Source: Pontiellaceae bacterium
GTDB taxonomy: Bacteria; Verrucomicrobiota; Kiritimatiellia; Kiritimatiellales; Pontiellaceae
Direction of reading: 5' to 3'
Length of the DNA stretch: 64,000 nt
Assembly: GCA_016937945.1 (NCBI GenBank)
Contig: JAFGVP010000102.1
Span: 20,227-84,226, forward strand
Shown one piece after another: positions 1,512 through 42,809 of this stretch (position 1 is the first letter of the stretch; the number at the start of each line of letters is the position of its first letter). Below the pieces are notes generated by a model. It saw nothing but the letters and a program-made list of their open reading frames with translations, made no database searches and was not told where the DNA came from. Position numbers and translations under genes: made by a program.

Positions 1512-1525
1512 GGTCGGTACCGCAT

Positions 1526-1547
1526 GTTACCCTTGGAGGGAGGTAAC
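1526..1547. promoter_or_regulatory. inverted repeat GTTACC-N10-GGTAAC in the divergent intergenic region, a candidate operator for the wHTH regulator
   Basis: GTTACCcttggagggagGTAAC seen directly. Lies between the divergent hypothetical/methyltransferase operon and the regulator gene. Confidence 0.25.
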
Positions 1548-1683
1548 GGACGTATTCACTGAAAAGTGCTCGCACTCCCTTAAAAACAAAGTGCCGGATC
1601 ACTGGGATAGGACGAGCGCAATACTGTCAACTTCCCACCGATTCGTGGGCAAACATCTGTAACCATACGACGGTTCTTCTCGC

Positions 1684-7005: not shown

Positions 7006-7083
7006 TGGTCGGAGCGACAAGATTCGAACTTGCGACCTCTACCACCCCAAGGTAGCGCTCTAGCCAGGCTGAGCTACGCCCCG
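7006..7083 (-). tRNA. tRNA-Pro (anticodon GGG)
   Basis: Reverse complement gives CGGGGCG...CTACC-TTGGGGT-GGTAG...GGTCGCAAGTTCGAATCTTGTCGCTCCGACCA. The 7-bp acceptor stem has one G-U pair, the T-arm is GTTCGAATC, and a CCA is encoded. Anticodon loop TTGGGGT gives GGG. Confidence 0.85.
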
Positions 7084-7203
7084 AATTCCGTTTTGTATCG
7101 GAATTGAAGGCGAGGAACGTATCACGAGGGACAGGATGCGTCAACGCCGTCGGCATTAAAAATCGCGCCCCTTTTTCTTTTAAATACGCATCGACACTCT
7201 ACA

Positions 7204-26376: not shown

Positions 26377-27429
26377 ATGAGCTACAAAATTCCCGGCTTC
26401 CGCCACCCCAACCTTCCGAAAAACGAGCTCGGCTATACGACCAAGGATTATGAAGGGGCCGTATCCACCCTCTGCGCCGGATGCGGGCACGATTCCATCA
26501 GTGCCGCGATCATCGAGGCCTGCTTCGAAATGTCGATCCAGCCGCATCGTGTGGCCAAACTTTCCGGCATCGGCTGCTCCTCAAAAACGCCGACCTACTT
26601 TCTGGGAAACTCCCACGGATTCAATTCGGTACACGGGCGCATGCCGTCGGTCGCAACCGGCGCAAACATGGCCAACCGAAACATGCTCTATGTCGGTATT
26701 TCCGGCGATGGCGACACCGCATCGATCGGCATGGGACAGTTTGTTCACGCAGTCCGGCGCAATGTCAACATGGTCTATATCTGCGAAAACAACGGCGTTT
26801 ACGGCCTGACCAAAGGACAGGATTCGGCCACGACGGATATTGGATCGAAAAGCAAGAAGGGCGAGCCCAACGCCCTTGAACCGATCAACCTGTGCGCGAT
26901 TGCCCTGCAGCTCGGCGCCACCTTCGTGGCAAACAGTTTCTCGGGCGACAAAAGTCAGCTCGTACCGATCATCAAAGCGGCCATCGCCCATCAGGGTTTC
27001 TCGTTTATCAACGTGATATCCCCCTGCGTAACCTTCAACAACGTTGTGAGTTCCACAAAGTCATACGACTATATCCGGCAGCATATGGCATCCACCAACT
27101 CCGTGGATTATGTGCCGCCGGCCTCGGAAATCACCACCGAGTATGAGCCCGGCACGACAGAACGGGTGACCATGCATGACGGCTCCGTCATTAGCCTGCA
27201 TAAACTTGATCCCAATCTGGACATCCACAGCCGCCGCTCGGCGCTGGAAATGATCTATGAATACAGTGCGCAGGATAAAGTACTGACCGGCGTGCTGTTT
27301 ATTGATCCCGACGCCGACGAAATCCACAAGACGATGAACACGACAACCACACCGCTGAGAAACCTGACTGAAAAGGAACTTTGCCCCGGAGCGGCGGCAC
27401 TGGAAACCATCAATGAGCTGCACCGCTGA
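26377..27429 (+). CDS. korB: 2-oxoacid:ferredoxin oxidoreductase subunit beta (TPP-binding, KorB-like)
   Basis: 'GCGHDSI', 'GIGCSS', 'GDGDTASIG' TPP-binding motifs. Confidence 0.85.
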   Translation: MSYKIPGFRHPNLPKNELGYTTKDYEGAVSTLCAGCGHDSISAAIIEACFEMSIQPHRVAKLSGIGCSSKTPTYFLGNSHGFNSVHGRMPSVATGANMANRNMLYVGISGDGDTASIGMGQFVHAVRRNVNMVYICENNGVYGLTKGQDSATTDIGSKSKKGEPNALEPINLCAIALQLGATFVANSFSGDKSQLVPIIKAAIAHQGFSFINVISPCVTFNNVVSSTKSYDYIRQHMASTNSVDYVPPASEITTEYEPGTTERVTMHDGSVISLHKLDPNLDIHSRRSALEMIYEYSAQDKVLTGVLFIDPDADEIHKTMNTTTTPLRNLTEKELCPGAAALETINELHR

Positions 27430-27436
27430 CGCGGAT

Positions 27437-27739
27437 TCAGGCAGCCGACACAAACTTGTCGCCCAGCCGGCAGTGATGCCCGAACCGGCAGATGGTCTGG
27501 CAATATTGTTCGCGCCATTGACGCGCCAGACCGAAGTAGCCGTGTTCCATGAAATCGCGTTCGGCTTCCCGCCAGGAAACTTCCGATCCGCGACGCTCGG
27601 ACATATACCATTTGTTTTCATCGACGGCCTTGCAGTATTGCGTAATCTGCCACTCCTGAAGCGATCTGAATCCACTGCAGGTGATGCCCCGGTCGCTTTG
27701 ACAGTCCATTCTTCCTTCGTTGTAGTTTTCGTCTCTCAT
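27437..27739 (-). CDS. hypothetical small Cys/His-rich protein
   Basis: 100-aa ORF with ATG start and a GGAG-like Shine-Dalgarno. Several Cys/His ('CSGF', 'CQTICRFGHHC'). Convergent with korB. Confidence 0.35.
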   Translation of the reverse strand: MRDENYNEGRMDCQSDRGITCSGFRSLQEWQITQYCKAVDENKWYMSERRGSEVSWREAERDFMEHGYFGLARQWREQYCQTICRFGHHCRLGDKFVSAA

Positions 27740-28231
27740 GACTCCGTGACTCCATCAAATATTCTCTGACATATTCTATAGCATAGCCCATGCCGTTCCG
27801 GATGGGAACCGAACGAACTCGCAGCGAAACCATCCCGAATAACCTGAGTCACGGGGGGAACGGAAACACATTCCCATTCACCCTCCCGCCCATGTCGGTT
27901 CAGTTTATCCGGATCAAGGCGGAATAACCGGAAAACAGATTCCATTTTCCCGCACGGGAAAACCCATTTTTTGATGCCTGCACGACATGTTTCGCACGGA
28001 AACACAGAATCGACGAAGGTCTTACAAAAGCCCCATGAGGTTATAATTGAGATAATGGGACCAACACATATCATGTCTTCAAATCAAACACTTGAACTTG
28101 GTTTCAATTATTTGATTAGAAGTGGACAAATATATTGCGTGCATATATATGTGTATAAAATTTTCGGTCAGGGTTTGGTACCCACCGAGTGTCATCCCGG
28201 AACGAACCGGGAGCAAACGAAAGGAAAAGCT

Positions 28232-28912
28232 ATGAACCTGTTCAAACGCATGATGCGTATCACGAATGCCCGTATCGAAGCGGTTCTCTCCTCTGTTGAG
28301 GATCCTGAAACCATGTTTCCCCAGCTCGTTCGCGAAATGGAGGAACAGGTCGGCAAAGCCACCGAAGCAGAAGCTCAGGCCCTGACGGCGCTCAAGGTTG
28401 CAGAACGGAATCTGGAAGGCGCCAAAAACAACGTTGCAAAAATGCAGTCCGGCGCCGAACTTGCTGTAAAGAATAACGACGAAGCCATGGCCCGCGAAGC
28501 CATTGCTGCACAGCTTGACCACGAAAAGACACTCCAGCTGAAAGCGGATGCCTGCGACAAGGCCCGCGAAAGCTATGAACGCGCTCGCGATACCCGCCTT
28601 CAGGTCCAGGAAAAGCTGGACGAAATCCGCTCCAAGCAGGACGAGATCCTCACACGGGCCCGGATTGCAAAGAGCCAGAAGAAGATTGAGCAGACCGTCA
28701 GCTCCCCCCTGAACTCATCCGACAGCATTCTTGATGCGATCGACCGGCTTGAAGGCAAGGTTGAACAGGCGGAAGCAGAACTGGAAGTCCGGCGCGAAGT
28801 GGCCGGATCCGGCAAGCCGGCCCGCGACCTTGAAAAACGGCTCGAAAAGCTCGAAAGCGAGCAGGAAGTCGAACAGCGTCTGGCCGCCTTGAAAAATAAG
28901 CTGGCAGACTAG
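28232..28912 (+). CDS. pspA: PspA/IM30/Vipp1-family protein (ESCRT-III-like), paralog 1
   Basis: 'MNLFKRMMRITNARIEAVLSSVEDPETMFPQLVREMEEQV' closely parallels the PspA N-terminus. Coiled-coil throughout. Strong AAGGAAAAG Shine-Dalgarno. Confidence 0.85.
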   Translation: MNLFKRMMRITNARIEAVLSSVEDPETMFPQLVREMEEQVGKATEAEAQALTALKVAERNLEGAKNNVAKMQSGAELAVKNNDEAMAREAIAAQLDHEKTLQLKADACDKARESYERARDTRLQVQEKLDEIRSKQDEILTRARIAKSQKKIEQTVSSPLNSSDSILDAIDRLEGKVEQAEAELEVRREVAGSGKPARDLEKRLEKLESEQEVEQRLAALKNKLAD

Positions 28913-29004
28913 CTCCACCATGGCTCCGCAGAGCACGGAATCCGGCTTTTTTAAGTCTCCGTGCCCGCGTGTGCCCGCTTACTGAATCGAACAGGGAGCG
29001 AGTC

Positions 29005-29658
29005 ATGAATATCAGAGATCGTCTCAAAAACGTCTTCAAGGAAACCTTCCTTGATCTGTTTCACGATGAAGAACCAACACCAGACAATATGGACTCGGCA
29101 CTGGAACAGGCCCGCAGCAGTGCGGAAAAAGCCATGGACGCCCTTGCGGCGTTTACTGTATCGCATCTTCATCTTGCGGAGCAGCAGCATGCGGTCGAAG
29201 AACAGTTCAGCGCCTTGAACGCAGAGCTCGAAAGCGCCCTTGCAGAAAATGACGACAGCAGAGCCCGCAACCTGATCCGGAAGAAAAAACCGATTCAGAA
29301 CCAGTTGAATCAGCTCAATGAGCGCATGGCCGAAAGCAATGCGAGACATCAGGAGCTGAAGGCCCGGGTTGACGCCGTAAAGGGTCAGGTGCTGGATATC
29401 GAGCGGCGGAAAATGGAGCTTCAGCTTCGCGACCGGACCGCCGATGCAATGGATGAACTGGCACGGACAGAGGATGCAATCGGACAGGCCCATAACTATT
29501 CGGAGAGCATCGATGCCGAACAGACGGTCCTGCAGAAGGAAGCGGCTAATCAGGTAACAGCGGATCAGCGTAACACGATCGATGCGAAACTGAATCGGCT
29601 GATTGAAGACGACGAGGTTGAGCAGGAACTGGCCCGTCTCAAAAAAGAACGAAACTGA
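29005..29658 (+). CDS. PspA/IM30-like coiled-coil protein, paralog 2 (divergent)
   Basis: 'MNIRDRLKNVFKETFLDLFHDEEP...' PspA-like helix-0/helix-1, then coiled-coil. Directly follows paralog 1. Confidence 0.7.
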   Translation: MNIRDRLKNVFKETFLDLFHDEEPTPDNMDSALEQARSSAEKAMDALAAFTVSHLHLAEQQHAVEEQFSALNAELESALAENDDSRARNLIRKKKPIQNQLNQLNERMAESNARHQELKARVDAVKGQVLDIERRKMELQLRDRTADAMDELARTEDAIGQAHNYSESIDAEQTVLQKEAANQVTADQRNTIDAKLNRLIEDDEVEQELARLKKERN

Positions 29659-30296
29659 TGGGACTGCTTTCCAGACTTAAGGATATCAGCACCGGAAAAC
29701 TCCTCGCATTCCTTGATGAGGCGGAGCGACCGGAGCAGATTATTCCCCAGCTGCTCGACGAGCTGAGCGACCAACAGCAGGCTTTGCGTAATGCCGAGGC
29801 CAAATCGTTGTCGGCGGTCAGGAACGCACAGCGCCGGCTGGAGGAAACCATGGGGCGGTCGCTTCGCCTTGAGCGGGGAGCCGAGCTGGCCATCCGCAAA
29901 GGCGAGGATGACACCGCCCGGGAAGCGCTCAGGGAACAGCTCAAGATCGAGAACATTATTCCCCGGCAGCGCGAGCAGGTGGAGCAGGCACAGCAGATTC
30001 TGGACGATGTCCGGGAAAGAAGCCGGGCGATGGATGAGCAGATTGCCGCCGTTAAAGAAAAACGGAACACACTAAAATCGGCGCCGGACACTCCTCCCCA
30101 TTCGTCCGAACCGCTGTTGCGAAAAGTGGCGATGATGGAGGAGCGGATCATCGAAGAGGAAGCCGGACTGGAAGCACGGCGGGAAGTATACCAGCGCCGG
30201 CGCTCGCTCGATGAACGCCTGCTTGAGCTGGAACGCAACGAAGAAATAGAGAATCGCCTTAATAATATCCGAAAGGAACAAAACCATGATGGCTGA
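29658..30296 (+). CDS. PspA/IM30-like protein, paralog 3
   Basis: 'MGLLSRLKDISTGKLLAFLDEAERPEQIIPQLLDEL' PspA-type N-terminus. Start overlaps the stop of paralog 2 (TGATG). Confidence 0.75.
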   Translation: MGLLSRLKDISTGKLLAFLDEAERPEQIIPQLLDELSDQQQALRNAEAKSLSAVRNAQRRLEETMGRSLRLERGAELAIRKGEDDTAREALREQLKIENIIPRQREQVEQAQQILDDVRERSRAMDEQIAAVKEKRNTLKSAPDTPPHSSEPLLRKVAMMEERIIEEEAGLEARREVYQRRRSLDERLLELERNEEIENRLNNIRKEQNHDG

Positions 30297-30945
30297 ACTG
30301 CAGGAACTGATCCGGATCATGCTCGCAGGAATCAACCTGCCGATCACGCTTCTGTTTGCTGTTATGATCCTCTACTGGCTCAGCGTTATCTTCGGTGCGC
30401 TGGATATCGATATTCTTCAGTTTGACTTTGATGTCGATATTGAAGGCGGAGCTGACCTTGATGCTGACGCGGATGCAGATGTTCAGGGAGGCGGACCATT
30501 CCAAAGCATGCTGCTCTATTTCAATGTCGGTTCGGTGCCGGTCACGGTCTGGCTGAGTTTCCTGATTTTCACCTGCTGGTTGCTCTCCGTTCTTGAAACC
30601 TACTATTTTAATCCGGGGCTCCATTTCCTCATCGGCCTGATCTTTGTCATCCCGAACCTGATCGTAGGAATGTATGTGGCGAAGATGGCTACCGCACCGC
30701 TCAAGAAAGTGTTTGACGCCATGGCCCCGAAAAATATCACGCGCAAATCGCTCATTGGCCAGCGTGCCACGGTTTCTTCATCGACCGTCAGCAGCAGCTT
30801 CGGACAGATTGTCGTCAAAACCGATGGCGCACCGATCACTCTGAACGCCCGAAGTGCCCACGAAATCAGCAAAGGCGAAATGGTCGTAATCACACACGAA
30901 AAAGAACCGGGCGTCTTCACGGTCGAACCGTTTTCAGCAAACTAA
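30286..30945 (+). CDS. NfeD/YqiJ-like membrane protein (flotillin-associated, C-terminal OB-fold)
   Basis: 219 aa. Multiple TM helices, acidic loop 'DIEGGADLDADADADVQGGG', C-terminal beta-rich segment 'GQRATVSS...GQIVVKTDGAPITLNA...GEMVVIT' typical of the NfeD OB-fold. Precedes flotillin as in yqiJK/nfeD-floT pairs. Confidence 0.7.
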   Translation: MMAELQELIRIMLAGINLPITLLFAVMILYWLSVIFGALDIDILQFDFDVDIEGGADLDADADADVQGGGPFQSMLLYFNVGSVPVTVWLSFLIFTCWLLSVLETYYFNPGLHFLIGLIFVIPNLIVGMYVAKMATAPLKKVFDAMAPKNITRKSLIGQRATVSSSTVSSSFGQIVVKTDGAPITLNARSAHEISKGEMVVITHEKEPGVFTVEPFSAN

Positions 30946-30979: not shown

Positions 30980-33022
30980 ATGGGGGAACTACTAGGACTC
31001 ATCGTAATAGGCGTAGCTGCACTGCTCGTGCTCGGGCTGATCGGCGTCATTGTCAAATGCTACCGCAAGGTGGAACAGGGTACTGCGATTATCCGTACCG
31101 GGGTGGGCGGAACACGCGTTTCCTTTGAAGGCATTCTGGTCTTCCCGATTCTTCACCGCATGGAGCTGATGGAAATCTCCGTTAAGCGCATTGAGATTGA
31201 TCGTGCCGGATCGGACGGACTGATCTGTAAAGACAACCTGCGGGCCGACCTGAAGGTTGCCTTCTTCGTCCGGGTAAACAAAACGCCCGAAGATGTATTG
31301 AACGTGGCACAGTGCCTCGGATGCAAACGCGCCTCCGATCCGGTTGCCCTGGTGGACTTCTTTGACGCCAAGTTTTCCGAAGCCCTGAAGACCGTCGGTA
31401 AAAAGTTTGAGTTCGTCGAACTCTACTCAAATCGTGATACCTTCAAGGAAGAGATCATCAAGGTGATCGGAACCGATCTAAACGGATACGTGCTCGACGA
31501 CGCCGCCATCGACTATCTGGAACAGACCAAGCTCTCGCTCCTGAACCCCGACAACATTCTCGATGCCGAGGGGATCAAGAAGATTACCGAACTCACCGCC
31601 AAGCAGGCGATCCTCGCCAACGACATTGCGCGCGACAAGGAAAAGATCATCAAGAAGCAGGATGTGGAAGCACGTGAAGCCATTCTGCAGCTGGAAAAAC
31701 AGCAGGAAGAAGCCGAACAGAAACAGAAGCGCGAGATTGCTGAAATCACCGCTCGCGAAGAGGCCGAAGCCGCCAAAGTCAGGGAAGAAGAACGCAAGAA
31801 AGCCGAAAAAGCGAGGATCCAGACCGAAGAGGAAATTGCCGTCGCCAACGAAAACAAAGATCGTCAGGTTATCGTGGCCGCCAAGAACAAGGAGCGGACC
31901 GATCTGGTGGAAAGCGAGCGCATCATCAAGGATCGCGATCTTGAAGCCACCGAACGCGAACGGATTGTCACCCTCGCCCAGATCGAGAAGGAAAAGGCCG
32001 TCGAAGTCGAACGGAAGAATATTCAGGAAGTCATCCGCGAGCGGGTCATGGTTGAACGTAATGTGGTCGAGGAAGAAGAGCACATCAAGGATACCCGCGA
32101 ATTTGCCGGTGCCGACCGCGCCAAGCAGGTGGCCCTGACCAAGGCGGCGGAACAGGCCGAACAGAACCTGCTCATCGAAACCAAGGCCGCGGAAGCCCGC
32201 AAGGAAGCCATGCGCCACGAAGCCGAGCAGATGATCATCAAGGCCGACGCCGAACGCACGGCATCCGAAAAGGCGGCCGACGCCCGTAAGATCATGGCCG
32301 ACGCCCAGGCCGAAGAAGAAGCCGTCATCGGTATCGGTGAAGCCCGCGCGCTCGACGCCAAGGCCACGGCCACCGAGAAGTTCGGCATCGCCGAAGCCAA
32401 CGTGATCCAGAAGAAGGCGGAAGCCGAAGCCACCGCCATACAGAAACAGGGTGAAGCCGAAGCGATCGTGATTGGAAGCAAAGCCAGCGCCGAAGCCAAG
32501 GGCATTGACGAAAAGGCTGCCGCCATGAAGAAGTTCGATGCCGTCGGCAAGGAACACGAAGAGTTCAAGCTTAAGCTCAACAAGGATCTGGAAATCGAAC
32601 TCGCACATATCAACGTCCAGAAGGATATCGCCCGCGAACAGGCAGCGGTTATTGCCGAGGCTCTCAAGTCGGCCCGCATCGATATTGTCGGGGGCGACAG
32701 CACCTTCTTCGACAAGATTGTGGATTCCGTTACCAAAGGAAAATCCTTCGACCGCATGATCGATAACAGCACCGCGCTGACCGACATCAAGGAAACACTC
32801 TTCACCGGCGACTCCACAAACTTCACTGAACAGCTGAAGCGCTTTACTTCGCAGTTCGGCATGGATTCCGAAGACCTCAAGAACCTCACGGTTGCTGCGG
32901 CACTAGGGCAGATGATGTCCAGAGCGGACGAAGGAACCAAGGGATTCCTTCAGAGCATCATGGACACGGCAAAGAAGACCGGCATTGCCGATCAGGCCGC
33001 ATCCACCTTCCTGAACAAGTAA
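30980..33022 (+). CDS. flotillin-family SPFH-domain protein (YqiK/FloT-like)
   Basis: 680 aa. N-terminal TM, SPFH/band-7 domain, then a long E/A/K-rich coiled-coil with flotillin-type repeats ('AEAEATAIQKQGEAEAIVIG'). Confidence 0.85.
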   Translation: MGELLGLIVIGVAALLVLGLIGVIVKCYRKVEQGTAIIRTGVGGTRVSFEGILVFPILHRMELMEISVKRIEIDRAGSDGLICKDNLRADLKVAFFVRVNKTPEDVLNVAQCLGCKRASDPVALVDFFDAKFSEALKTVGKKFEFVELYSNRDTFKEEIIKVIGTDLNGYVLDDAAIDYLEQTKLSLLNPDNILDAEGIKKITELTAKQAILANDIARDKEKIIKKQDVEAREAILQLEKQQEEAEQKQKREIAEITAREEAEAAKVREEERKKAEKARIQTEEEIAVANENKDRQVIVAAKNKERTDLVESERIIKDRDLEATERERIVTLAQIEKEKAVEVERKNIQEVIRERVMVERNVVEEEEHIKDTREFAGADRAKQVALTKAAEQAEQNLLIETKAAEARKEAMRHEAEQMIIKADAERTASEKAADARKIMADAQAEEEAVIGIGEARALDAKATATEKFGIAEANVIQKKAEAEATAIQKQGEAEAIVIGSKASAEAKGIDEKAAAMKKFDAVGKEHEEFKLKLNKDLEIELAHINVQKDIAREQAAVIAEALKSARIDIVGGDSTFFDKIVDSVTKGKSFDRMIDNSTALTDIKETLFTGDSTNFTEQLKRFTSQFGMDSEDLKNLTVAAALGQMMSRADEGTKGFLQSIMDTAKKTGIADQAASTFLNK

Positions 33023-33115
33023 CCGCAAGAGAACCACGGAACACACAGAATACAATAAGGAGCTTAGATCTCCGTGTATTCGGTGTATTCCGTGGCGAAC
33101 AAAAAGGGTCTTTCC

Positions 33116-36100
33116 ATGGCAGAAGAAACCGCAGGCAAGGAACAGGAATCCCAACTCGAAAGCGGCGCCTACGAGGTTATCCGCGGCCGGCTGAATACGC
33201 ATTCGCAGGATCTCTTTTCGCGCACGGAGCAGCTGGATAAACATCGGCGAGAGGTCTTCGGATCGATTGAAACCGCGCTGCTCGCCACCGAGCGGATCAC
33301 CACTGAAAACAACTGCGTCCCGCGCGACATGGTTGAAGTCGGCAATCAGTTCCTTTTCGGCTACAACGTTCATATCGGACTGCGCTCCGAGATGCAGCTT
33401 GGTGACGTCTTCTCGGCCTATACCTTCAACGAAGACGGCGGCTTTCGCTCAGCTCCGCTGGACCTGCTCGGCAGCAGCGAATTCGAGACGCACTTCCGGG
33501 AGCTTTACAAATACTACAAAAACACCCGGTTCAGCGCATTCCGCGACGTCGGAACCTGCCTGTACATGATCTTCCGGATCAGCGATGACCCGGCCGACAT
33601 CAAGGCATTCAAATGGCAGCGCAACGACGATGGGTCCATCACCTACATCGACAATCGATCGGATCATGAAGTCAGGTTCCCGCCCCAGCACGAATTTGAA
33701 TGGACCCGCGCATCGCGCGACATGCAGCGCAACGGCGAGCACCCGCACGTATCCATTCAGGACCGCATCTTTGTCGAGACCATCGGCGGCGACCTGACCA
33801 TCAAGATCGAAGACAACACCGACACCGGAGAAGGTATCTTTGCCGAACCGGTTGATAATCCGGACCAGACGCTCGACGACGCCGAAATCTGGTACACCTG
33901 CATTGAAAGCCTGATCCTGCTGAAGATCCTTCCCTATCAGGAAAAAAACTATCGCTATATCGTATACTCCGAAAAACTGAACATCGCGCAGCGCATCGAT
34001 ACCATTGCCGACTCCTGTGTCCTGCTGCCCCGCAACCGCGGAATCATTTTCGCCAACGGATATTTCCTGCAGAACGGCGAAGTCAAAACCTTTGAGAACA
34101 GCCTCACCGATATGCGCTTCCTCCGCCGCATCGCGGCAACCAACGGCGAGGACCATCTCTACATCTTTTTCAACCGGCGCAACGGCGTATACGTCCTTCT
34201 CGCCTACAACGTCATTCAGGAAACGGTAGCCACGCCGATCACCTGCCACGGCTACAGCCTGTTTGAAAACGGCCGGCTCATCTTTTTCAAAGCCGGGAAT
34301 GAACCGCAGAAAAGTCACGCCATTCAGGTCTGGCAAACGCCGTTCACCGGGGCCGACGTGGTGCTCAGCAAGAATACCGATGACTATCTGTACAAGATCG
34401 GCAACTCCGACATCGTACGCTGCATGGCGGCCTGCAACGCGATCATCAACCTGTCACGGCGCGAAGACACCTACGCCAACCTCTATGTCGATCTGGTGCG
34501 GGAAGCACAGGATGTCATCGATACCTATTTCTGGATTGAAAAGCAGGAAGCGTATGACCTGCGTGCCCCGCTGCTTCAGATACGCGATGCGGCCAAGGCT
34601 GCTATCGACGAGTTTGAAAAAGTACGCCGGCTGCGCCAGCAGGCGTCCACGGCTCTGAAGGAAATGCGCCGGCGCGTGAAGGATGCGACCTCGGCGTCGG
34701 CCTCCAGCCGCTACGAAAAACTCGATCCATATGTAAAAGCCCTTGCCAACCTGCGCGCACTGCGCGGAGAAATTATCAGCCTGCGCGAACTGCGCTACAT
34801 GGATCTAGAGCAGGTTGAAGTCATGGAGACTTCGGTTGCGGAGCAGACGGATAAAACCGCCCGCACCTGCGTTGAATTCCTGCTCAAGCCGGAATCGCTG
34901 ACCCCCTACTCCGACGAAGTTGCAAAGGTGGCGGAATCGATCGAAACGGTTGAAAAGGTGGCCGACGCCAAAAAGATCGAGGGCGCCGTGACCGAACGCG
35001 CCGGCGAACTGGAGATGCTGACCGACACCGTAAGCAACCTGAAGATTGATGACGCCACGCAGCGGACCGACATCATCGACCGCATCTCGCAGATCTTTTC
35101 CTCCCTCAACCGGGTTCGTTCCACGCTTCGGAACCGGCTCAAGGAACTGGCCGTCCGCGAAGGATCCACCGAATTTGCATCGCAGCTCAAGCTGCTTTCT
35201 CAGGCGGTCACCAACTATCTGGATGTATGCGACTCGCCGGAAAAGTGCGATGACTATCTCGGCAAGGTCATGATTCAGATCGAGGAACTGGAAGGGCGCT
35301 TCTCCGACTTTGATGAGTTTATCGAGCAGTTGACGGAACGACGGGAAGCCATCTACCAGACCTTCGAAACGCGCAAGCAGCAGCTCATGGAAGAGCGTAA
35401 CCGGCGCGCCGATACCCTGCTGCGCAGTGCCGAACGGATTCTCAAGAGTATTGCCCCTCGCCTCAACTCAATGCAGACCGTCGAGGAAATCAACGGTTAC
35501 TTTGCGTCGGACCTCATGGTCGATAAGGTTCGAAACATCATTGAGCAGCTCACCGAAATGGATGACTCCGTCAAGGCGGGCGACATTCAGACCCGGCTGA
35601 AAACATTGAGGGAAGATGCGGTTCGTCAGTTGAAGGACCAGCAGGAGCTCTTCGTCGGCGGCGAAAATGTGATCCGCTTCGGCACGCACCATTTTGCCGT
35701 CAACACGCAGCCGCTTGAGCTCACGCTGGTCCGGCGAGAAGAGAACATGTTCATGCATCTCACCGGCACCGACTTTTTCGAAGCGGTCACCGACGAGGCG
35801 TTCCTTGAAACGCGCGCGGTCTGGGAATATGAACTGCCGTCCGAAACAAAGGATCTTTACCGCGCCGAATTTCTGGCGGTTCAGCTGTTTCGCAAAGCAC
35901 TTGCTGAAGGGCTGGCTGAATATGCGGAAGACGAACTGCTGAAATATGTTCAGGAGCATATGGCCACCCGCTACACCGAAGGCTACATCAAGGGCGTCAG
36001 CGACATCGATGCCGCCAAGCTGCTCCATGCCCTGCTCTCCATCCATCAGCGCGCCGGACTCCTGCAGTACAGTCCATCCATCCGGGCGCTGGCGATCCTC

Positions 36101-38200
36101 GGCTGGGCTCTGCATCCGGATAAGGACGAACTGTCCGATAAACTTGCGGGCTACGGCCGCGTCCGGAATGTATTCCGCAATACCGGTCGTCACGCAGCCT
36201 ATACCCGCGAACTGCAGCGGATTCTGCAGGACTTTTCCGAAAGCAATGAGCTTTTCCCTGAACACGATGCCGTTTTTGCGGCGGAATATCTTTCGGATGT
36301 GCTGACCCATGATGGAAAACATCCGATCAGTCGGGAAGCCATAGCGCTCTTCAACGGGTTTCAGCAGCGGCTGAAACGGCCGGGAGCCCAGCGCCTTTTT
36401 GATGAAGCGATGGCGCCGGTTGAAAAGCGCCCGCTGGCCCGTTTTGATCTGCTCAGGGACTGGCTGGCGGCATACATTGAAGATGAAGCATTGCCGGAAC
36501 TGTGCGATGTGATTGCTGAAACCGCGGCTCTGATGCTGACGGACAAGATGGACCCGCTCAACTCCGGCGATCTGGACACCCGCTGTGAAATCAGCGAACT
36601 GGCCGGAAGTCATGCGCGCATCACCAACGGCAAATACCTCTTTGATTATCACGACCTGCTGCGCCGGGTTCATCTGCATGAAACCGGACTTCTCCCCCAC
36701 TTCGCGGTTTTCCTCGAAAAGAAAAAGGCGCTGGTTGAACGTACGCGCGATGAAATGCGACTCGATGAATTTAAACCGCGCGTGCTGACCTCGTTTGTCC
36801 GGAACCAGCTGATCGACAAGCTTTACCTGCCGCTGATCGGTGACAATCTCGCCAAGCAGATGGGCACCGTCGGGGCAGACACACGCACCGACCGCATGGG
36901 CATGCTGCTGCTGATTTCTCCGCCGGGTTACGGGAAGACGACGCTGATGGAATATATCGCCAACCGCCTCGGGATTATCTTCATGAAGATCAACGGCCCG
37001 GCGATCGGCCATCAGGTTACTTCCATCGATCCGGCCGAAGCTCCGAATGCCGCGGCGCGGCAGGAGCTGAACAAGCTCAATCTGGCACTGGAGATGGGCG
37101 ACAACGTGATGATCTATCTCGACGACATCCAGCACTGTAATCCGGAACTGCTGCAGAAATTTATTTCGCTCTGCGATGCCCAGCGAAAGATTGAAGGCGT
37201 CTACAAGGGCCGGCCGAAAACCTATGACCTGCGAGGCAAGGCTGTCTGCGTGGTGATGGCGGGCAACCCCTACACGGAAAGCGGTGAAATGTTCAAGGTG
37301 CCGGACATGCTGGCCAACCGGGCAGACACCTATAACCTGGGTGATATGATCGGCGATTCTGCCGACGCCTTCAAACTCTCCTATATCGAGAACGCCATGA
37401 CCTCCAATCCCGTTCTGGATAAGCTGGCATCGCGTTCCCGTTCGGATATTCATGCGATGATCAGGCTCGCGGAAAATGATTCCCGCGAAGGGATCGAGTT
37501 TGAGCGCGACTATTCAGCCGACGAGATTGCCGAATTCACTTCCGTACTTCGAAAGCTGCTCCGCATCCGCGATGTCGTGCTGACCGTGAATCAGGAATAT
37601 ATTCGCTCCGCCGCGCAATCCGACGACTACCGCACGGAGCCGCCGTTTAAACTGCAGGGATCCTATCGGAATATGAACCGGTTGGCGGAAAAGGTGCAGC
37701 CGATCATGAATGATGCGGAGATCGAGGCAATCCTGATGGATCATTATACCGGCGAAGCCCAGACATTGACCACCGGTGCCGAGTCCAACCTGCTCAAATT
37801 CAAGGAACTGTTCAGCAAACAAGATGAAACCGAAGCCGCCCGCTGGACGGAGATTAAGAAAACCTTCAACCGCAACCAGCTGTTCAGTGCCGCCGGTGAC
37901 GATAAACTGGCCCCGATTATTCTTCAGCTCTCCCGCTTCAATGAACATCTTGAAGAACTGAAAAGCACCATTGCTCAGGCTGCAGAATCCCGACCAGGGC
38001 AATCGTCTGCCGAGATCAATCTGGGATTATCGACTATTGAGGCGCTTAAACCGGCATCGACCGACTTCGGTCCGCTCCAGCAGACACTGCTGGAAATTGC
38101 GGAAAAACTGCAGGAAAGCGGAATGCATCCACACAGGAGAAGTGAACTTCCGGTGCATATGCAGAAACCCTGGCCGAAGGATTCGGACGACAGCAAATAG
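33116..38200 (+). CDS. very large (~1694 aa) protein with C-terminal AAA_5 (dynein/MoxR/McrB-type) ATPase module; N-terminal ~1250 aa of unknown function with coiled-coils
   Basis: Walker A 'LLLISPPGYGKTTLMEYIA'. Walker B/sensor region 'VMIYLDDIQHCNPELLQKF...AVCVVMAGNPY' matches the AAA_5 'DEINRA' pattern. ATG at 33116 with an AAAAAGGG Shine-Dalgarno. Confidence 0.8.
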   Translation: MAEETAGKEQESQLESGAYEVIRGRLNTHSQDLFSRTEQLDKHRREVFGSIETALLATERITTENNCVPRDMVEVGNQFLFGYNVHIGLRSEMQLGDVFSAYTFNEDGGFRSAPLDLLGSSEFETHFRELYKYYKNTRFSAFRDVGTCLYMIFRISDDPADIKAFKWQRNDDGSITYIDNRSDHEVRFPPQHEFEWTRASRDMQRNGEHPHVSIQDRIFVETIGGDLTIKIEDNTDTGEGIFAEPVDNPDQTLDDAEIWYTCIESLILLKILPYQEKNYRYIVYSEKLNIAQRIDTIADSCVLLPRNRGIIFANGYFLQNGEVKTFENSLTDMRFLRRIAATNGEDHLYIFFNRRNGVYVLLAYNVIQETVATPITCHGYSLFENGRLIFFKAGNEPQKSHAIQVWQTPFTGADVVLSKNTDDYLYKIGNSDIVRCMAACNAIINLSRREDTYANLYVDLVREAQDVIDTYFWIEKQEAYDLRAPLLQIRDAAKAAIDEFEKVRRLRQQASTALKEMRRRVKDATSASASSRYEKLDPYVKALANLRALRGEIISLRELRYMDLEQVEVMETSVAEQTDKTARTCVEFLLKPESLTPYSDEVAKVAESIETVEKVADAKKIEGAVTERAGELEMLTDTVSNLKIDDATQRTDIIDRISQIFSSLNRVRSTLRNRLKELAVREGSTEFASQLKLLSQAVTNYLDVCDSPEKCDDYLGKVMIQIEELEGRFSDFDEFIEQLTERREAIYQTFETRKQQLMEERNRRADTLLRSAERILKSIAPRLNSMQTVEEINGYFASDLMVDKVRNIIEQLTEMDDSVKAGDIQTRLKTLREDAVRQLKDQQELFVGGENVIRFGTHHFAVNTQPLELTLVRREENMFMHLTGTDFFEAVTDEAFLETRAVWEYELPSETKDLYRAEFLAVQLFRKALAEGLAEYAEDELLKYVQEHMATRYTEGYIKGVSDIDAAKLLHALLSIHQRAGLLQYSPSIRALAILGWALHPDKDELSDKLAGYGRVRNVFRNTGRHAAYTRELQRILQDFSESNELFPEHDAVFAAEYLSDVLTHDGKHPISREAIALFNGFQQRLKRPGAQRLFDEAMAPVEKRPLARFDLLRDWLAAYIEDEALPELCDVIAETAALMLTDKMDPLNSGDLDTRCEISELAGSHARITNGKYLFDYHDLLRRVHLHETGLLPHFAVFLEKKKALVERTRDEMRLDEFKPRVLTSFVRNQLIDKLYLPLIGDNLAKQMGTVGADTRTDRMGMLLLISPPGYGKTTLMEYIANRLGIIFMKINGPAIGHQVTSIDPAEAPNAAARQELNKLNLALEMGDNVMIYLDDIQHCNPELLQKFISLCDAQRKIEGVYKGRPKTYDLRGKAVCVVMAGNPYTESGEMFKVPDMLANRADTYNLGDMIGDSADAFKLSYIENAMTSNPVLDKLASRSRSDIHAMIRLAENDSREGIEFERDYSADEIAEFTSVLRKLLRIRDVVLTVNQEYIRSAAQSDDYRTEPPFKLQGSYRNMNRLAEKVQPIMNDAEIEAILMDHYTGEAQTLTTGAESNLLKFKELFSKQDETEAARWTEIKKTFNRNQLFSAAGDDKLAPIILQLSRFNEHLEELKSTIAQAAESRPGQSSAEINLGLSTIEALKPASTDFGPLQQTLLEIAEKLQESGMHPHRRSELPVHMQKPWPKDSDDSK

Positions 38201-38352
38201 CCCCGGAAGCGCCAACCGATGCAGATGCGTGAACCATGGTTTGGTGCACGGGTTCGGCGCCGGACCACTTCATGAACAACTGCTGGTGAAAAGAGTTTGC
38301 GGCGGACGTGGTTGAACCGATACGTTTTTGCAAAATAATCTTGGAGTTATCT

Positions 38353-41300
38353 ATGAATCGTTTTCTATCTGCCGGACTCATCCTCCTGACACTGCTTCTT
38401 CCTGTCCTGCCGTCGCAGGCTGCTGATTTTCTATCAGCGGAGGTGATTGCGAAAAAGGCAACTGCGGCCTCTGTTGATAAATATCCCGATTCCGATGCGG
38501 TCCTGCTTGATGACTACATTCAGGTGACCTACAACGCCGACGGAACCTCCGAAATGTGGGACGACACCGCCGTTAAGATCCTGACAGAAAAGGGCAAACG
38601 CAATTATCGCACGCTATCGCTCTCCTTCAACACTTCATACGGCACCAACTACTTTACACTGGTGGAAATCATTAAACCCGACGGATCGGTGATTCCCGTG
38701 GATATTACAGCCAACAGCAAGGTGATGGCGGATCCCAGCCAGATGAGCGCGAATATATACAACCCCAACAGCAAGGTGCTCAGTCTGTCGGTCCCCGGCC
38801 TGGAAGTGGGCGACACCCTGCACTACATCTCCTACGATCTCACAACAAAAACCGTCGTTCCGGATACATGGAGCGACTATCAGGTCTTTGAAGGAGAAAC
38901 TCCGATCGAGCAGATGACCTATCAGGTGGTTGCCCCGAGCGCGCGTCCGCTGCAGAAGATCGCGCTCAAGGGAGAGATTCCCGGCAAAGTTTCCTTCAAC
39001 CAGACCGTCAGCGAAGAAGACGGATATATTATCTACACGTGGCAGGTGCGGGATGTCCCGCGTATGTTCGACGAACCCGACATGCCGAAACGCTACACCG
39101 TTGTGCAGCGCCTGCTGGTCAGCACCATCGAATCATGGGAAGATCTCTCACGCTGGTACTGGGAACTGTGCAAACCGCGGCTTGATGCCACGACGCCGGA
39201 AATGGAAGCTAAAGCCCGCGAACTGGTAGCGGGATGCGAAACGAAGGCCGAAAAAATTCAAGCGGTTTTCCAGTTTGTTTCGCAGGATATCCGCTACATG
39301 GGTATCACCCCGGAAGAAGAGGCGCCCGGTTATGAGCCGCACGATGTATGCATCACCTTCGAAAACCGTTACGGGGTCTGCCGCGACAAAGCAGCCCTGC
39401 TGGCGGCCATGCTCCGGATTGTCGACATCGAGGCGTTCCCGGTCATCATCATGGCCGGCCCCAAGAAGGATGAAGAAGTTCCACAGCCCTTCTTCAACCA
39501 TGCGGTAACCGCCGCTCTTGGTGATGACGGTGAATACATCCTGATGGATTCCACCGACGAAAACACGAAGGACATTTTTCCGGCCTACCTCCAGAACATG
39601 AGCTATCTGGTTGCCCGCCCCGAAGGAGAGACCCTGCTCACCTCTCCGGTTATTCCGGCAGAAAACAATCTCCTGCGGATTCAATCCACCGGCACACTGA
39701 ATGCCACCGGCACATTGAACATGGAGAGCGTACTGAACTTTGAAGGCGTGAACGATACGGTTTATCGCGGCTACTTTTCAAAGATCAAGCCAGAGGAACG
39801 CCGGCGCTTCTTTGAGGGCCATCTGAAACGGACGATGCCCACCGCGATATTGAACTCGCTTGAAATCCTGCCCGAAGAGCTGCGCGACACCAGTAGCCCA
39901 CTGGTCGTAAAGATGACCTTTTCCGCAGACAACCTCCTGATTGAAGGCGAAGAAAACACCATGTTCCGACCACCGCGTCTCGGAATGTCGCTTGGCTACG
40001 CAAACTTTCTCATCGGACAGACCGGCCTCGAAGAGCGTAAATATCCGCTCTACACCCAGATCACCGCCGGTATTCGTGAAACCCAGAAGCTGAAGCTTCC
40101 CGACGATCTGGGCACCATCAATGTGCCGGATTTCATGCTGATCGACACCGAAACCATTACATGGAATGCCCATGCTTCTCAGCACGACGGCGCACTCTAC
40201 TCCACCAACATCTTCATGCTCAATACCGTGGAGTTCAGCCCGGAACAGTACAGCACCCTCAAGCAGCAATTGAAGGATATTGAATACAATCTGCGCAAGA
40301 GCATTGTGGCCGATGCCCCGCCGCAGTCGGAAGACGAAGCGGATATTCGGATTCTCGACCAAGAGACCGAGATTGTGCTTTCCGGCGTCGACCGATGGAC
40401 GGAAACCCGCCGGACCAAACTGAAGGTACTGACCTATGCCGGCCAGAAGGAATATTCCGAAATCAAGCTGTTCCATAATCCGGCGTGGCAGGAAATCGGA
40501 ATAACCCACGCAACCGTGACGCTCGCCGACGGAACCGTCAAAGAGATCAGCGACGATGAAATCAACCTGATGGACGCATCCTGGGTGGCCGGTGCGCCCC
40601 GCTATCCCTCCGGACGGATTCTGGTGGGCAACCTGCCCGGCGTGGAAATCGGAAGTACCATCGAGTATGAAGTGGTCTCCCGCGTTAATGGTAAACCCTT
40701 CTTTTCCATGATCGAAACCTTTACCGGCCATGAACCGGTGGATCACAGTAGGCTGACAATCACCGTTCCAGAGAACCTTCCGCTGCAGATTCTCAACACC
40801 GGTGTGGATGAAACCATCGAAAGCAGCGAAGATTCCATTACCTACACATGGAGTGTCTCGAATAAGCCAGCCGTCAAGTTTGAGGAATCCCTGCCGGACT
40901 GGTGGACGTTCAATCCATCGGTATTCGTTTCATGCGGCGACTGGGAAATCTACAGCAAGCAGCTTCTCGAACGTCTTCGGCAGGCCTCCCGCGAACAACC
41001 GGAAGCCATCCGCATGGCACGGAAAATAACAGGAGGAATCGGAAGCCATCGCGAGCGGGTGATTGCCATCCGCAACTGGGTAGCCGAAAACATTCGCCCG
41101 GCCGGTCCTTCCCTGCCCGACCTGCCCTTCGACGCCATTTCGCCGGCCGACCGCACGCTGGCCGACCGCTACGGCAACAACACAGATCGCATGGTCGTAC
41201 TCTACACCCTACTTAAGGCTGCCGGCTTCAAACCGGAATTCATTCTGTCCGGCGGCACGCCGCACATTGCGGAGGCTGCAAAACCGATGCTCGAAGTGCC

Positions 41301-42123
41301 GATCCGAACAGCATTCAGGTCCGTACTGCTCCGCATGGACCTCGATGGAGAAACCCTCTATATTGACGGCTCATCGCAGTATGCCGAGCTGGGAGCCAGC
41401 GCATTTGATCATGAACCCATGCTGCTTCTCGCCAACGGAACCATCGGCACCGTCCGGGTAGGACCTGGCAAGGATGACCGCTCTCACCTGCTGTACGAAA
41501 TGTCCATAACGCCGGACGGCGAGATGACGCTTTCTGAGGACATTGCGGTTCAGGGAGTGCGCTTTGAATCCTTCCATAGCACCTATGCGGAAATGACCCC
41601 GGAAAACCGCCGGCGCCACTATCTCGAAATCGTTTCCGGGGTTTCCCAGTCCGCCAAAGCCATGACAGAGCTGGTAACAGATTATGACAAATATCCGGGC
41701 AGGCTGGCCTTCACGGTTAAAGCACCTCGCTTTGCGGTGAAAGACGGCGACTATCTGTATTTCACCCTCCCGGAAGATTCTCTCAGTAACCTGCTTGTGT
41801 ACCGATCCAACGAACGAACCCTCCCGCTGGCATGGAATGCACATATCGACACATTGACTGAGTTTATCATTTACCTTCCAAAGGGATACGAGCCGGCGAT
41901 TCTTCCTGAAAACTTTTCATGGCAGGCGCCGCGTGGCGCCGGACTCATTGATATGGCCGTGGAATACAGTCCTGTCGATCACTCCATCCGTATGGTCCAG
42001 ATCGCCGATCTTCGGCCGGCACTGATCCCGGCGGATCAGTTTCCGGACATTATCAACGCCGGCCGCAAACTGGCCCATCCGAAAATGCGCACCATCCTGC
42101 TGAAAAAATCGGCCGCCAAATAA
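38353..42123 (+). CDS. secreted DUF3857/transglutaminase-like large protein (~1256 aa)
   Basis: Signal peptide 'LILLTLLLPVLPSQAAD'. Transglutaminase core 'YGVCRDKAALLAAMLRIVDIEAFPV'. A second DUF3857/3858-like half follows. Shine-Dalgarno GGAG precedes the ATG at 38353. Confidence 0.75.
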   Translation: MNRFLSAGLILLTLLLPVLPSQAADFLSAEVIAKKATAASVDKYPDSDAVLLDDYIQVTYNADGTSEMWDDTAVKILTEKGKRNYRTLSLSFNTSYGTNYFTLVEIIKPDGSVIPVDITANSKVMADPSQMSANIYNPNSKVLSLSVPGLEVGDTLHYISYDLTTKTVVPDTWSDYQVFEGETPIEQMTYQVVAPSARPLQKIALKGEIPGKVSFNQTVSEEDGYIIYTWQVRDVPRMFDEPDMPKRYTVVQRLLVSTIESWEDLSRWYWELCKPRLDATTPEMEAKARELVAGCETKAEKIQAVFQFVSQDIRYMGITPEEEAPGYEPHDVCITFENRYGVCRDKAALLAAMLRIVDIEAFPVIIMAGPKKDEEVPQPFFNHAVTAALGDDGEYILMDSTDENTKDIFPAYLQNMSYLVARPEGETLLTSPVIPAENNLLRIQSTGTLNATGTLNMESVLNFEGVNDTVYRGYFSKIKPEERRRFFEGHLKRTMPTAILNSLEILPEELRDTSSPLVVKMTFSADNLLIEGEENTMFRPPRLGMSLGYANFLIGQTGLEERKYPLYTQITAGIRETQKLKLPDDLGTINVPDFMLIDTETITWNAHASQHDGALYSTNIFMLNTVEFSPEQYSTLKQQLKDIEYNLRKSIVADAPPQSEDEADIRILDQETEIVLSGVDRWTETRRTKLKVLTYAGQKEYSEIKLFHNPAWQEIGITHATVTLADGTVKEISDDEINLMDASWVAGAPRYPSGRILVGNLPGVEIGSTIEYEVVSRVNGKPFFSMIETFTGHEPVDHSRLTITVPENLPLQILNTGVDETIESSEDSITYTWSVSNKPAVKFEESLPDWWTFNPSVFVSCGDWEIYSKQLLERLRQASREQPEAIRMARKITGGIGSHRERVIAIRNWVAENIRPAGPSLPDLPFDAISPADRTLADRYGNNTDRMVVLYTLLKAAGFKPEFILSGGTPHIAEAAKPMLEVPIRTAFRSVLLRMDLDGETLYIDGSSQYAELGASAFDHEPMLLLANGTIGTVRVGPGKDDRSHLLYEMSITPDGEMTLSEDIAVQGVRFESFHSTYAEMTPENRRRHYLEIVSGVSQSAKAMTELVTDYDKYPGRLAFTVKAPRFAVKDGDYLYFTLPEDSLSNLLVYRSNERTLPLAWNAHIDTLTEFIIYLPKGYEPAILPENFSWQAPRGAGLIDMAVEYSPVDHSIRMVQIADLRPALIPADQFPDIINAGRKLAHPKMRTILLKKSAAK

Positions 42124-42809
42124 TGAAACTGCACTATCTCCAGCACGTTCCGTTTGAAGGACTGGGTTATATCGAAACCTGGGCCCGGCATAACGACATG
42201 GAAATCTCCGTCAGCCGACTCCATGCGAACGATCCGCTGCCGGCGCCCGATCTGTTTGACTGGCTGGTGATCATGGGCGGGCCCATGGGTATTTATGATC
42301 ACGATGAATATCCCTGGCTGCCTGAAGAAAAAGTCTTCATCCGCCAAGCCATAGACGCCGGGAAAACCGTGCTCGGCATCTGCCTGGGCGCCCAGCTGAT
42401 TGCCGATGTGCTTGGCGCAAAGGTCTATCCCGGACCACAGAAAGAGATCGGCTGGTTTCCGATCCGACGCGCTGATGACGCGCCCGATCTGATTCCGGAA
42501 ACCCTCACCGTTTTCCACTGGCATGGCGACACGTTCGATATTCCGGACGGCGCCGTTAAGCTCGCCTCCAGCGAGCCCGGCATCAATCAGGGCTTTGTCT
42601 ATAACGAACGAGTTGTCGCCCTGCAGTTTCATCTCGAAAGCACGCAGGCAAGCATCGAAGCCCTGCTCGAACACTGTGCCGATGAACTCGTCGACGCCCC
42701 CACCATCCAAACCGCCGAGCAGATCCGCAACGGCTTTACGCAGATCGAATATATAAATGATATCCTCACCGGCTTACTGAATCAGTTGTTTCTCCGGAAA
42801 GACACGTGA
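42123..42809 (+). CDS. class I (type 1) glutamine amidotransferase-like protein
   Basis: 'VLGICLGAQLIA' nucleophile-Cys motif and 'ALQFHLE' His/Glu. Start overlaps the stop of the upstream gene (TAATG). Confidence 0.75.
   Translation: MKLHYLQHVPFEGLGYIETWARHNDMEISVSRLHANDPLPAPDLFDWLVIMGGPMGIYDHDEYPWLPEEKVFIRQAIDAGKTVLGICLGAQLIADVLGAKVYPGPQKEIGWFPIRRADDAPDLIPETLTVFHWHGDTFDIPDGAVKLASSEPGINQGFVYNERVVALQFHLESTQASIEALLEHCADELVDAPTIQTAEQIRNGFTQIEYINDILTGLLNQLFLRKDT

Follow-up and report, generated by a model that had tools for sequence, protein, structure and literature searches.

In Pseudomonas aeruginosa the genes bacABCDEF were found by reverse transcription PCR to form a single transcript (Wallart et al. 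2024, PMC10948618). The operon has a predicted sigma-54 promoter and encodes, in order, a DUF2170 CesT/Tir-like protein (BacA), one PspA (BacB), a short NfeD/YqiJ-like protein (BacC), a flotillin (BacD/PaFlo3), a giant ATPase (BacE) and a PLD-family protein (BacF). Upon mutation of bacA, the levels of BacB, C, D, E and F were raised 6-13-fold, with an 8.9-fold increase for PA14_16190 (BacE) (PMC10948618), and co-upregulation of PA3728-PA3732 was observed in another proteome study (PMC13637947). PA3728 has also been listed as an 'ATPase' among recurrently mutated cystic fibrosis (CF) genes. Here we analysed a counterpart of this system in a 64,000-nucleotide (nt) stretch of DNA from a Pontiellaceae bacterium (contig JAFGVP010000102.1, positions 20,227 to 84,226 of the forward strand), hereafter the window. 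The gene in question is located at 33116..38200 (+) and encodes a soluble protein of 1694 amino acids (aa). It is a Pontiella-type ortholog of BacE (PA14_16190/PA3728) that belongs to the DUF3686 family, and it is the last gene of a module in which a YqiJ/NfeD-like gene and a YqiK-type flotillin gene precede the giant ATPase gene.

The association of such ATPases with flotillin and PspA is not new here, having been put forward in 2024 as a prediction from comparative genomics. Ravi et al. (mSystems 2024, PMC11237479; bioRxiv 2020) described operons that join CesT/Tir-PspA with three further genes, observed that PLD is added to the PspA-flotillin operon in some Proteobacteria, and reported abbreviated flotillin-YqiJ(-ATPase) operons to be commoner than PspA-containing ones. 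ATP-dependent membrane remodelling was proposed for these operons (PMC11237479). The window shares the gene set and the ATPase architecture of this operon class. An initial annotation made from the DNA letters alone (the sequence-only reading) could match the architecture to no characterised protein; the novelty suggested by this is not supported, given the earlier publication.

The window has PspA, a short NfeD/YqiJ-like protein, flotillin and then the giant ATPase in the same order as bacABCDEF. It differs both from that operon and from the class of Ravi et al. in that PspA is present as three paralogs and the CesT/Tir gene is missing, and from the Pseudomonas operon in lacking a PLD gene as well; the DUF2170 chaperone is present in Pseudomonas and Hahella. 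What the window adds is accordingly an ortholog and a three-PspA, CesT-less operon variant, the candidate itself being already in print. Two questions in the field are how PspA/Vipp1 polymers are disassembled without Vps4 and what opens closed SPFH/flotillin cages or turns them over. For either or both, the BacE/DUF3686 family provides a concrete candidate that can be tested, being spread over many phyla, strongly conserved, near-invariably tied to the flotillin pair and tractable as P. aeruginosa bacE. Of use for experiments are the resemblance of its motor to the MoxR ATPases CbbQ and NorQ, the constancy of flotillin, not PspA, as partner, and the baselessness of the name 'DNA repair ATPase'.

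The giant protein and its relatives

The reading frame of the giant gene spans 33074..38200 (+), or 1708 codons, and its first ATG at 33116 yields the 1694-aa product. An alternative GTG start is found at 33074, 11 nt past AAGGAG at 33057-33062; the N-termini of homologs favour the ATG. The distance from the flotillin stop at 33022 to this ATG is 93 base pairs (bp), so the short gap described in the sequence-only reading was confirmed while its figure of 94 bp needed correction. No transmembrane or other hydrophobic segment was detected by hydropathy analysis and the protein should therefore be cytosolic. The Pfam profile DUF3686 (PF12458) was matched over its full length at aa 32-472 (E value 1.4e-183) and DUF7902 (PF25472) at aa 594-677 (E value 1.4e-28), although the first ~1250 aa had initially been considered to be without a known match. 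Matches to AAA, AAA_22, AAA_5 and RuvB_N around aa 1253-1387 were weak, the AAA_5 match being marginal at 24.6 bits relative to a cutoff of 22, and no meaningful match to the giant protein was returned by NCBIfam and PADLOC scans.

The P. aeruginosa ortholog was retrieved by a metagenome scan with a published bac primer, the Pseudomonas contigs having a guanine plus cytosine (GC) content of ~67%. A scan with another published bac primer found nothing, and a homolog search seeded with the Marinobacter protein gave no P. aeruginosa entry among its best 120 matches. On one contig (L046) three published PA14 bac primers match exactly, and the gene bracketed by the primers encodes a 1746-aa protein with DUF3686, DUF7902 and AAA_5. 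This protein is collinear with the window protein over the full length, with 43% identity over 1703 aligned positions. The comparison shows that P. aeruginosa BacE (PA14_16190/PA3728) is, by sequence, a member of the family and the ortholog of the window protein. Next to the giant gene of L046, on its 3' side, is a PLDc_2 gene (BacF); recJ comes after that, at 866-2581 (-), two genes downstream of BacE on the same strand. On a further Pseudomonas contig (L054) the first five bac genes were recognised by Pfam or homology, followed by a 235-aa open reading frame (ORF) in the position of BacF.

The closest named relative of the giant protein is a Pontiella desulfatans protein with 82% identity, which places the window in a Pontiella-like Kiritimatiellota genome, and more than 5,600 relatives were present in a 90%-identity database. 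Members from Planctomycetota, Verrucomicrobiota and Deltaproteobacteria keep 53-59% identity across ~1,700 residues. An exhaustive search with the propeller region described below resolved the DUF3686 family into 769 clusters at 50% identity, with full-length members of 1,600-1,900 aa. The family appears to evolve unusually slowly for a 1,700-aa protein without assigned function. One member (P0018) has 1950 aa, ~250 aa more than the window protein, and carries several HEAT-repeat Pfam families besides DUF3686-DUF7902-AAA. In some records the giant gene is split into at least two ORFs, namely in Marinobacter salarius R9SW1 (CP007152.1; L032 10001-15007), in Fusibacter (L027 9989-15003), at L010 506-5389 and in L056 and L057, the flotillin gene being broken also in the last two. 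These broken records represent either pseudogenes or assembly frameshift errors.

Databases name the family for DNA repair: the NCBI product name is mostly 'DNA repair ATPase' and Pfam describes DUF3686 as 'ATPase involved in DNA repair'. Besides these names, a DNA repair function could be argued from a weak similarity to RuvB that is confined to the P-loop and from recJ two genes downstream in P. aeruginosa; we speculate that the label stems from one of the two. The RuvB similarity, however, extends over just ~45 residues at Walker A, neither a DNA-binding nor a nuclease domain was detected in the giant protein, and the conserved neighbours are all membrane-scaffold genes. In the literature searched, no paper on 'DUF3686' was found, nor any tying 'DNA repair ATPase' to flotillin. 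A DNA repair role was therefore rejected as based on the name only, its probability being close to nil.

The conservation described above also bears on whether the genes form an anti-phage or abortive-infection module, with the ATPase as the sensor or the executor of a membrane response. Historically, PspA is known as a phage-shock protein, and it has reportedly been linked by one paper to cyclic-oligonucleotide-based anti-phage signalling (CBASS), and a PLD-family enzyme is part of some proteobacterial versions. The best PADLOC match (mad8, E value 0.002, 15.6 bits), however, falls in the P-loop region, and defence genes, which evolve fast, would not be expected to keep 53-56% identity across phyla over 1,700 aa or to fall into as few as 769 clusters at 50% identity. 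The chromosomal contexts are furthermore varied, with no recognisable defence genes in the annotated flanks, and we consider a defence function to be improbable. An McrBC-like or other defence ATPase was likewise rejected, as PADLOC gave no meaningful match and neither an McrC-type partner nor a defence profile was found.

Neighbours of the giant gene across phyla

Conservation of the linkage was surveyed by scanning one genome per species with peptide patterns, which resulted in 33 loci, 29 of which had enough upstream sequence. Of these 29, 28 were found, by searching their ORFs with the window proteins, to have a YqiJ-like gene, a flotillin gene and the giant gene in this order and on a single strand. 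The same upstream pair was present in seven out of seven extra Pfam-annotated neighbourhoods (Hahella, Symmachiella, P. desulfatans, a Deltaproteobacteria metagenome-assembled genome (MAG), Binatia, one 12.7-Mb genome and Kiritimatiellota B12222) and also in two Pseudomonas loci and two fragmented Verrucomicrobia loci. In total, 39 of the 40 loci that could be evaluated, from ~10 phyla, have flotillin directly upstream of the giant gene and on its strand. The groups covered were Kiritimatiellota, Verrucomicrobiota, Planctomycetota, Bacteroidota, Bacillota, Fibrobacterota, Gamma- and Deltaproteobacteria and Binatia, and as the arrangement recurs to this extent across many phyla it is not due to chance. 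Clustering of neighbours across the survey loci identified no further gene conserved among lineages and nothing conserved downstream, and the chromosomal surroundings of the giant gene were unrelated from one lineage to the next. In P. desulfatans the yqiJ-like and flotillin genes are separated by a 407-aa ORF that weakly matches an integrase core (rve) (L036 6588-7811); this ORF is absent from the window and has the appearance of a mobile element inserted into the module.

PspA was the more variable partner. As detected with an iterated PspA profile, it adjoins the module in ~14 of the 23 main-survey lineages and is not adjacent in ~9, which include Pontibacter (11 genomes), Victivallales, Chitinispirillaceae, Anaerocolumna, Fusibacter, Symmachiella, Binatia and others. 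This agrees with the remark on abbreviated operons in PMC11237479. Because flotillin is found in 39 of 40 loci and PspA in ~14 of 23 lineages, the flotillin pair is regarded as the constant partner and PspA as a frequent add-on. The linkage pointed out in the sequence-only reading is thus conserved across phyla, but its emphasis on PspA was not supported, the invariant neighbours being the YqiJ-like protein and flotillin. Where PspA is present its arrangement differs between lineages. Three paralogs were found at the module in the window, in P. desulfatans and in one Spartobacteria MAG; CesT_Tir_1 (PF22550) accompanies PspA at the module in several Bacteroidota; and in Marinobacter and Hahella PspA belongs to a separate, opposite-strand DUF2170-PspA unit. 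In a Deltaproteobacteria MAG (L039, JAFGXQ010000144.1, 13115-15579) PspA lies directly downstream of the giant gene, and its stop overlaps the start of the next gene, which encodes a classical AAA+ protein of 577 aa; the PDB entries most closely related to this protein are Cdc48, VAT and p97 (E value 1e-30). This PspA-AAA+ pair is, on sequence grounds, a separate unit whose AAA+ protein is a closer analogue of Vps4 than is the giant protein; it is the separate PspA-associated ATPase that is already in the literature.

These neighbourhoods are central to the notion, raised initially, that the giant ATPase acts as a dedicated, non-homologous analogue of Vps4 that disassembles or recycles the PspA polymer, with flotillin and YqiJ serving only as membrane platform. 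It is consistent with the three PspA paralogs upstream on the same strand in the window, P. desulfatans and the Spartobacteria MAG, and with PspA being adjacent in ~14 lineages, including the CesT/Tir-PspA-YqiJ-flotillin-ATPase operon of Bacteroidota and Pseudomonas. Also in its favour are the co-transcription of BacE with the PspA homolog BacB (PMC10948618) and a 2025 review according to which a Vps4-like ATPase for PspA is apparently absent in bacteria. On the other hand, PspA is absent nearby in ~9 of 23 lineages and flotillin almost never, PspA of Marinobacter and Hahella is on the opposite strand in its DUF2170-PspA unit, and in L039, even with the giant gene adjacent, PspA has a classical CDC48/VAT-like AAA+ partner of its own through translational coupling; these points tell against the analogy. 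In addition, the Pfam scan of the giant protein identified no MIT or MIT-like domain, its N-terminus being a helix followed by a beta-propeller; in Vps4 it is the MIT domain that binds ESCRT-III tails. A dedicated Vps4 analogue is thus held to be unlikely. The same doubt attaches to a fuller version, in which BacE-type ATPases would be an independently invented Vps4 analogue that is docked to flotillin/YqiJ via its propeller and helical region and recycles PspA polymers. If true, ESCRT-III-like membrane repair in bacteria would have its missing energy source, and SPFH cages would be functionally coupled to ESCRT-III-like polymers.

Domain architecture, ATPase motor and candidate function

The architecture of the giant protein was derived from two AlphaFold2 models calculated from a 106-sequence alignment, covering aa 1-1000 (mean predicted local distance difference test (pLDDT) score 85) and aa 990-1610 (pLDDT 87.5). 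A helix at aa 18-48 precedes a predicted beta-propeller domain at aa 54-407 (33275..34336, +), which falls within the aa 32-472 spanned by Pfam DUF3686. In Foldseek this domain resembled generic propellers (clathrin terminal domain, IFT-A, prolyl oligopeptidase), a result that is consistent with the published family description. A long all-helical region follows at aa 424-845 (34385..35650, +), with modelled helices of up to ~58 residues, and holds DUF7902. Next is a small conserved beta domain at aa 853-890 (35672..35785, +) with the motif G..F.VN.Q...LT and flanking loops of low pLDDT, and then a less conserved second helical domain at aa 894-1214 (35795..36757, +) that runs into the ATPase. 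The AAA+ alpha/beta core occupies aa 1231-1406 (36806..37333, +). It is followed by the AAA+ lid and a conserved C-terminal helical domain at aa 1407-1608 (37334..37939, +), in which YRTEPPFKLQGSYRNM is invariant (37628-37675, +). In the C-terminal tail at aa 1609-1694 (37940..38197, +) conservation falls to 0.15-0.19, and pLDDT drops at the end of the model.

The ATPase core carries Walker A SPPGYGKTT at aa 1268-1276 (36917-36943, +), Walker B YLDDIQHC at aa 1334-1341 (37115-37138, +), sensor 1 MAGNPYTESG (37256-37285, +) and a candidate arginine finger in PDMLANRAD (37301-37327, +). Walker A, DDIQH, AGNPYTESG with the sensor-1 Asn, and NR of PDMLANRAD were all invariant among the 106 aligned homologs. 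PDB sequence searches with the giant protein and with the 106-sequence profile gave alignments to p97, RuvB and similar proteins that were confined to ~45 residues at the P-loop, which makes clade assignment impossible from sequence searches. By fold, the top Foldseek matches of the ATPase module were the MoxR ATPases CbbQ and NorQ (PDB 6l1q, 9qh4). The AAA+ clade, not assigned in PMC11237479, is accordingly MoxR (CbbQ/NorQ) by fold search, and the MoxR/AAA_5-type module with SPPGYGKTT and DDIQHC that had been predicted for the giant gene at the outset was borne out. The model further contains a pre-sensor-1 beta-hairpin at aa 1358-1371, its two strands being formed by model residues 369-374 and 377-382 and following helix 3 ahead of strand 4, while the strand 2/helix 2 junction is a conserved ~18-residue loop with a short helix and no strands. 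The giant protein gave no full PF00004 match and showed no classical-clade AAA fold or sequence. The module thus stands, as modelled, as MoxR/AAA_5-type and not Vps4-type, atypical in its Walker B and in that no VWA partner was seen.

Taken together, the reading we favour is that the giant protein is an ATP-driven remodeller of the flotillin/PspA membrane scaffold and the energy-consuming part of a system at the cytoplasmic face; we give this about an even chance, and consider a specific Vps4-like action on PspA to be less likely. In such a mechanism, the propeller and helical region would dock on the membrane-anchored flotillin/YqiJ assembly at the cytoplasmic face, and the C-terminal MoxR-type ring would spend ATP in order to assemble, open or disassemble the scaffold. 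In lineages with PspA, polymers of PspA recruited to this site may be a further target of the ring.

Several points weigh against this function. Gene adjacency does not by itself point to a substrate, and no biochemical work on a DUF3686/BacE-family protein was found in the literature searched. Walker B is Asp-Asp and not the canonical Asp-Glu in all 106 homologs, which suggests, as far as the motif is a guide, slow or partner-stimulated hydrolysis. The MoxR-typical helix-2 insert is not evident in the AlphaFold2 model. MoxR ATPases usually act with a VWA/MIDAS partner, and the Pfam matches of the window genes and the annotated neighbourhoods contained no VWA family. The survey loci are biased, 11 of 33 being from Pontibacter and all having been found via peptide patterns, and in one locus (L028), the sole exception to the linkage, the giant gene lacks a flotillin neighbour. 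Finally, the operon status of the window genes is based solely on short gaps and the lack of a predicted terminator.

The pairing with flotillin also accommodates a different role, in which the giant protein is a client or effector of the flotillin cage, as FtsH is with HflK/C, and extracts, inserts or quality-controls other membrane proteins or lipids. SPFH scaffolds are recurrently paired with AAA+ machines, for example HflK/C with FtsH, a precedent that equally favours the remodelling of the scaffold itself. The last gene of the Pseudomonas operon encodes a PLD-family hydrolase, BacF, and this hints at lipids or the membrane as substrate (PMC11237479), and in L039 a PLDc_2 gene is found ~7 kb downstream of the giant gene, beyond an opposite-strand gene. 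The propeller and long helical region moreover resemble membrane-coat and adaptor folds generically in Foldseek. Such a role is nevertheless judged doubtful, as no protease or other catalytic domain besides the ATPase was identified in the Pfam scan of the giant protein, the PLD gene is lineage-restricted and absent in the window, and the neighbourhood holds no conserved candidate client.

The module in the window and related systems

Upstream of the module, a terminator-like hairpin with a T-run at 27945..27962 (+) closes the 2-oxoacid:ferredoxin oxidoreductase genes recognised by Pfam. It is a weak hint at the 5' module boundary, as the consensus scan for promoters and terminators gave match counts no higher than in shuffled sequence. 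No ORF for a CesT/Tir-like chaperone (DUF2170/CesT_Tir_1) was found between this site and the first PspA gene, and a 118-aa ORF at 27413-27769 had no relevant Pfam match. A sigma-70-like promoter match (10/12) at 28047..28074 (+), in the AT-rich 270-bp spacer before the first PspA gene, is a candidate operon promoter. PspA paralog 1 is placed at 28232..28912 (+) and encodes ~226 aa beginning MNLFKRMM (Pfam PspA_IM30 E value 6.7e-29). The ORF listed for it starts at TTG 27971 and has 313 aa, of which PspA_IM30 covers aa 89-310; ATG 28232 is preceded by a purine-rich stretch, the P. desulfatans ortholog also has 226 aa, and this ATG is most likely the start. Paralog 2 (28969..29658, +; 229 aa) matched PspA_IM30 with an E value of 2.2e-12, and with 5.9e-63 our own PspA profile, which includes paralog 2 itself. 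Paralog 3 (29658..30296, +; 212 aa), the start of which overlaps the stop of paralog 2, matched PspA_IM30 (E value 1e-19) and TIGR02977 (E value 9e-22).

The YqiJ/NfeD-like gene (30286..30945, +) overlaps paralog 3 by 11 nt and encodes a 219-aa membrane protein with ~3 predicted transmembrane segments and a C-terminal soluble beta domain. Its Pfam matches to YqiJ_N (E value 0.005) and NfeD (E value 0.014) were both below cutoff, and pairwise BLAST against E. coli YqiJ gave no match, whereas a profile of 21 orthologs aligned to E. coli YqiJ in hhalign with 94.7% probability (E value 5.6e-8). The YqiK-type flotillin (30980..33022, +; 680 aa) consists of an N-terminal transmembrane segment in aa 1-31, an SPFH-like region and a long Glu/Ala/Lys-rich helical region. 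It gave no Pfam or PDB sequence match either as a single sequence or as a 19-sequence profile; direct comparison to E. coli YqiK gave 31% identity over 444 aa (E value 8e-49). Its C-terminal part is conserved and extends past the stretch alignable to E. coli YqiK, and mean column identity among 19 orthologs is 62%. A special tail might mark those flotillins that are linked to the ATPase; a search with the flotillin tail returned only 23 short fragments, and the two inspected were frameshifted flotillin pieces beside fragmented DUF3686 genes. By Pfam, hhalign and the YqiK comparison, the position of the giant gene behind PspA, NfeD-like and flotillin genes on the same strand was upheld. From PspA paralog 1 to the giant gene the intergenic distances are 56, -1, -11, 34 and 93 nt, and the consensus scan placed no terminator-like site on the + strand between flotillin and the giant gene.

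In the window the 3' neighbour of the giant gene, 107 bp past it, encodes a DUF3857/transglutaminase protein (38308-42123, +; 1271 aa, with an N-terminal hydrophobic segment, two DUF3857 and two transglutaminase-core stretches), in contrast to PLDc_2 in Pseudomonas. Its stop is overlapped by a glutamine amidotransferase gene (42123-42809, +). Neither gene is kept beside the giant gene elsewhere, P. desulfatans having isocitrate dehydrogenase there, and the DUF3857/transglutaminase gene was therefore rejected as a module member. Elsewhere in the window, positions 2001-8000 have a GC content of ~0.47, compared to 0.52-0.58 in the remainder, and could be a foreign island.

Among systems with known ATPases, CbbQ and NorQ are closest in fold to the giant ATPase module, with sequence identity of just 12-14%. 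They are ~260-aa stand-alone rings with the VWA/MIDAS partners CbbO and NorD. The giant protein, in contrast, has ~1,230 N-terminal residues fused to the motor, a DD Walker B, no helix-2 insert evident and no VWA partner seen. Likeness to Vps4/CdvC, the ATPase of ESCRT-III disassembly, is conceptual only and lies in an AAA+ gene beside genes of the ESCRT-III superfamily (PspA). HflK/C-FtsH and related SPFH-AAA+ pairs resemble the present system in that a scaffold of the SPFH family is paired, genetically or physically, with an AAA+ machine at the membrane. FtsH, however, is a membrane-anchored classical AAA+ protease inside the cage, whereas the giant protein is soluble, of the MoxR type and devoid of a protease domain.

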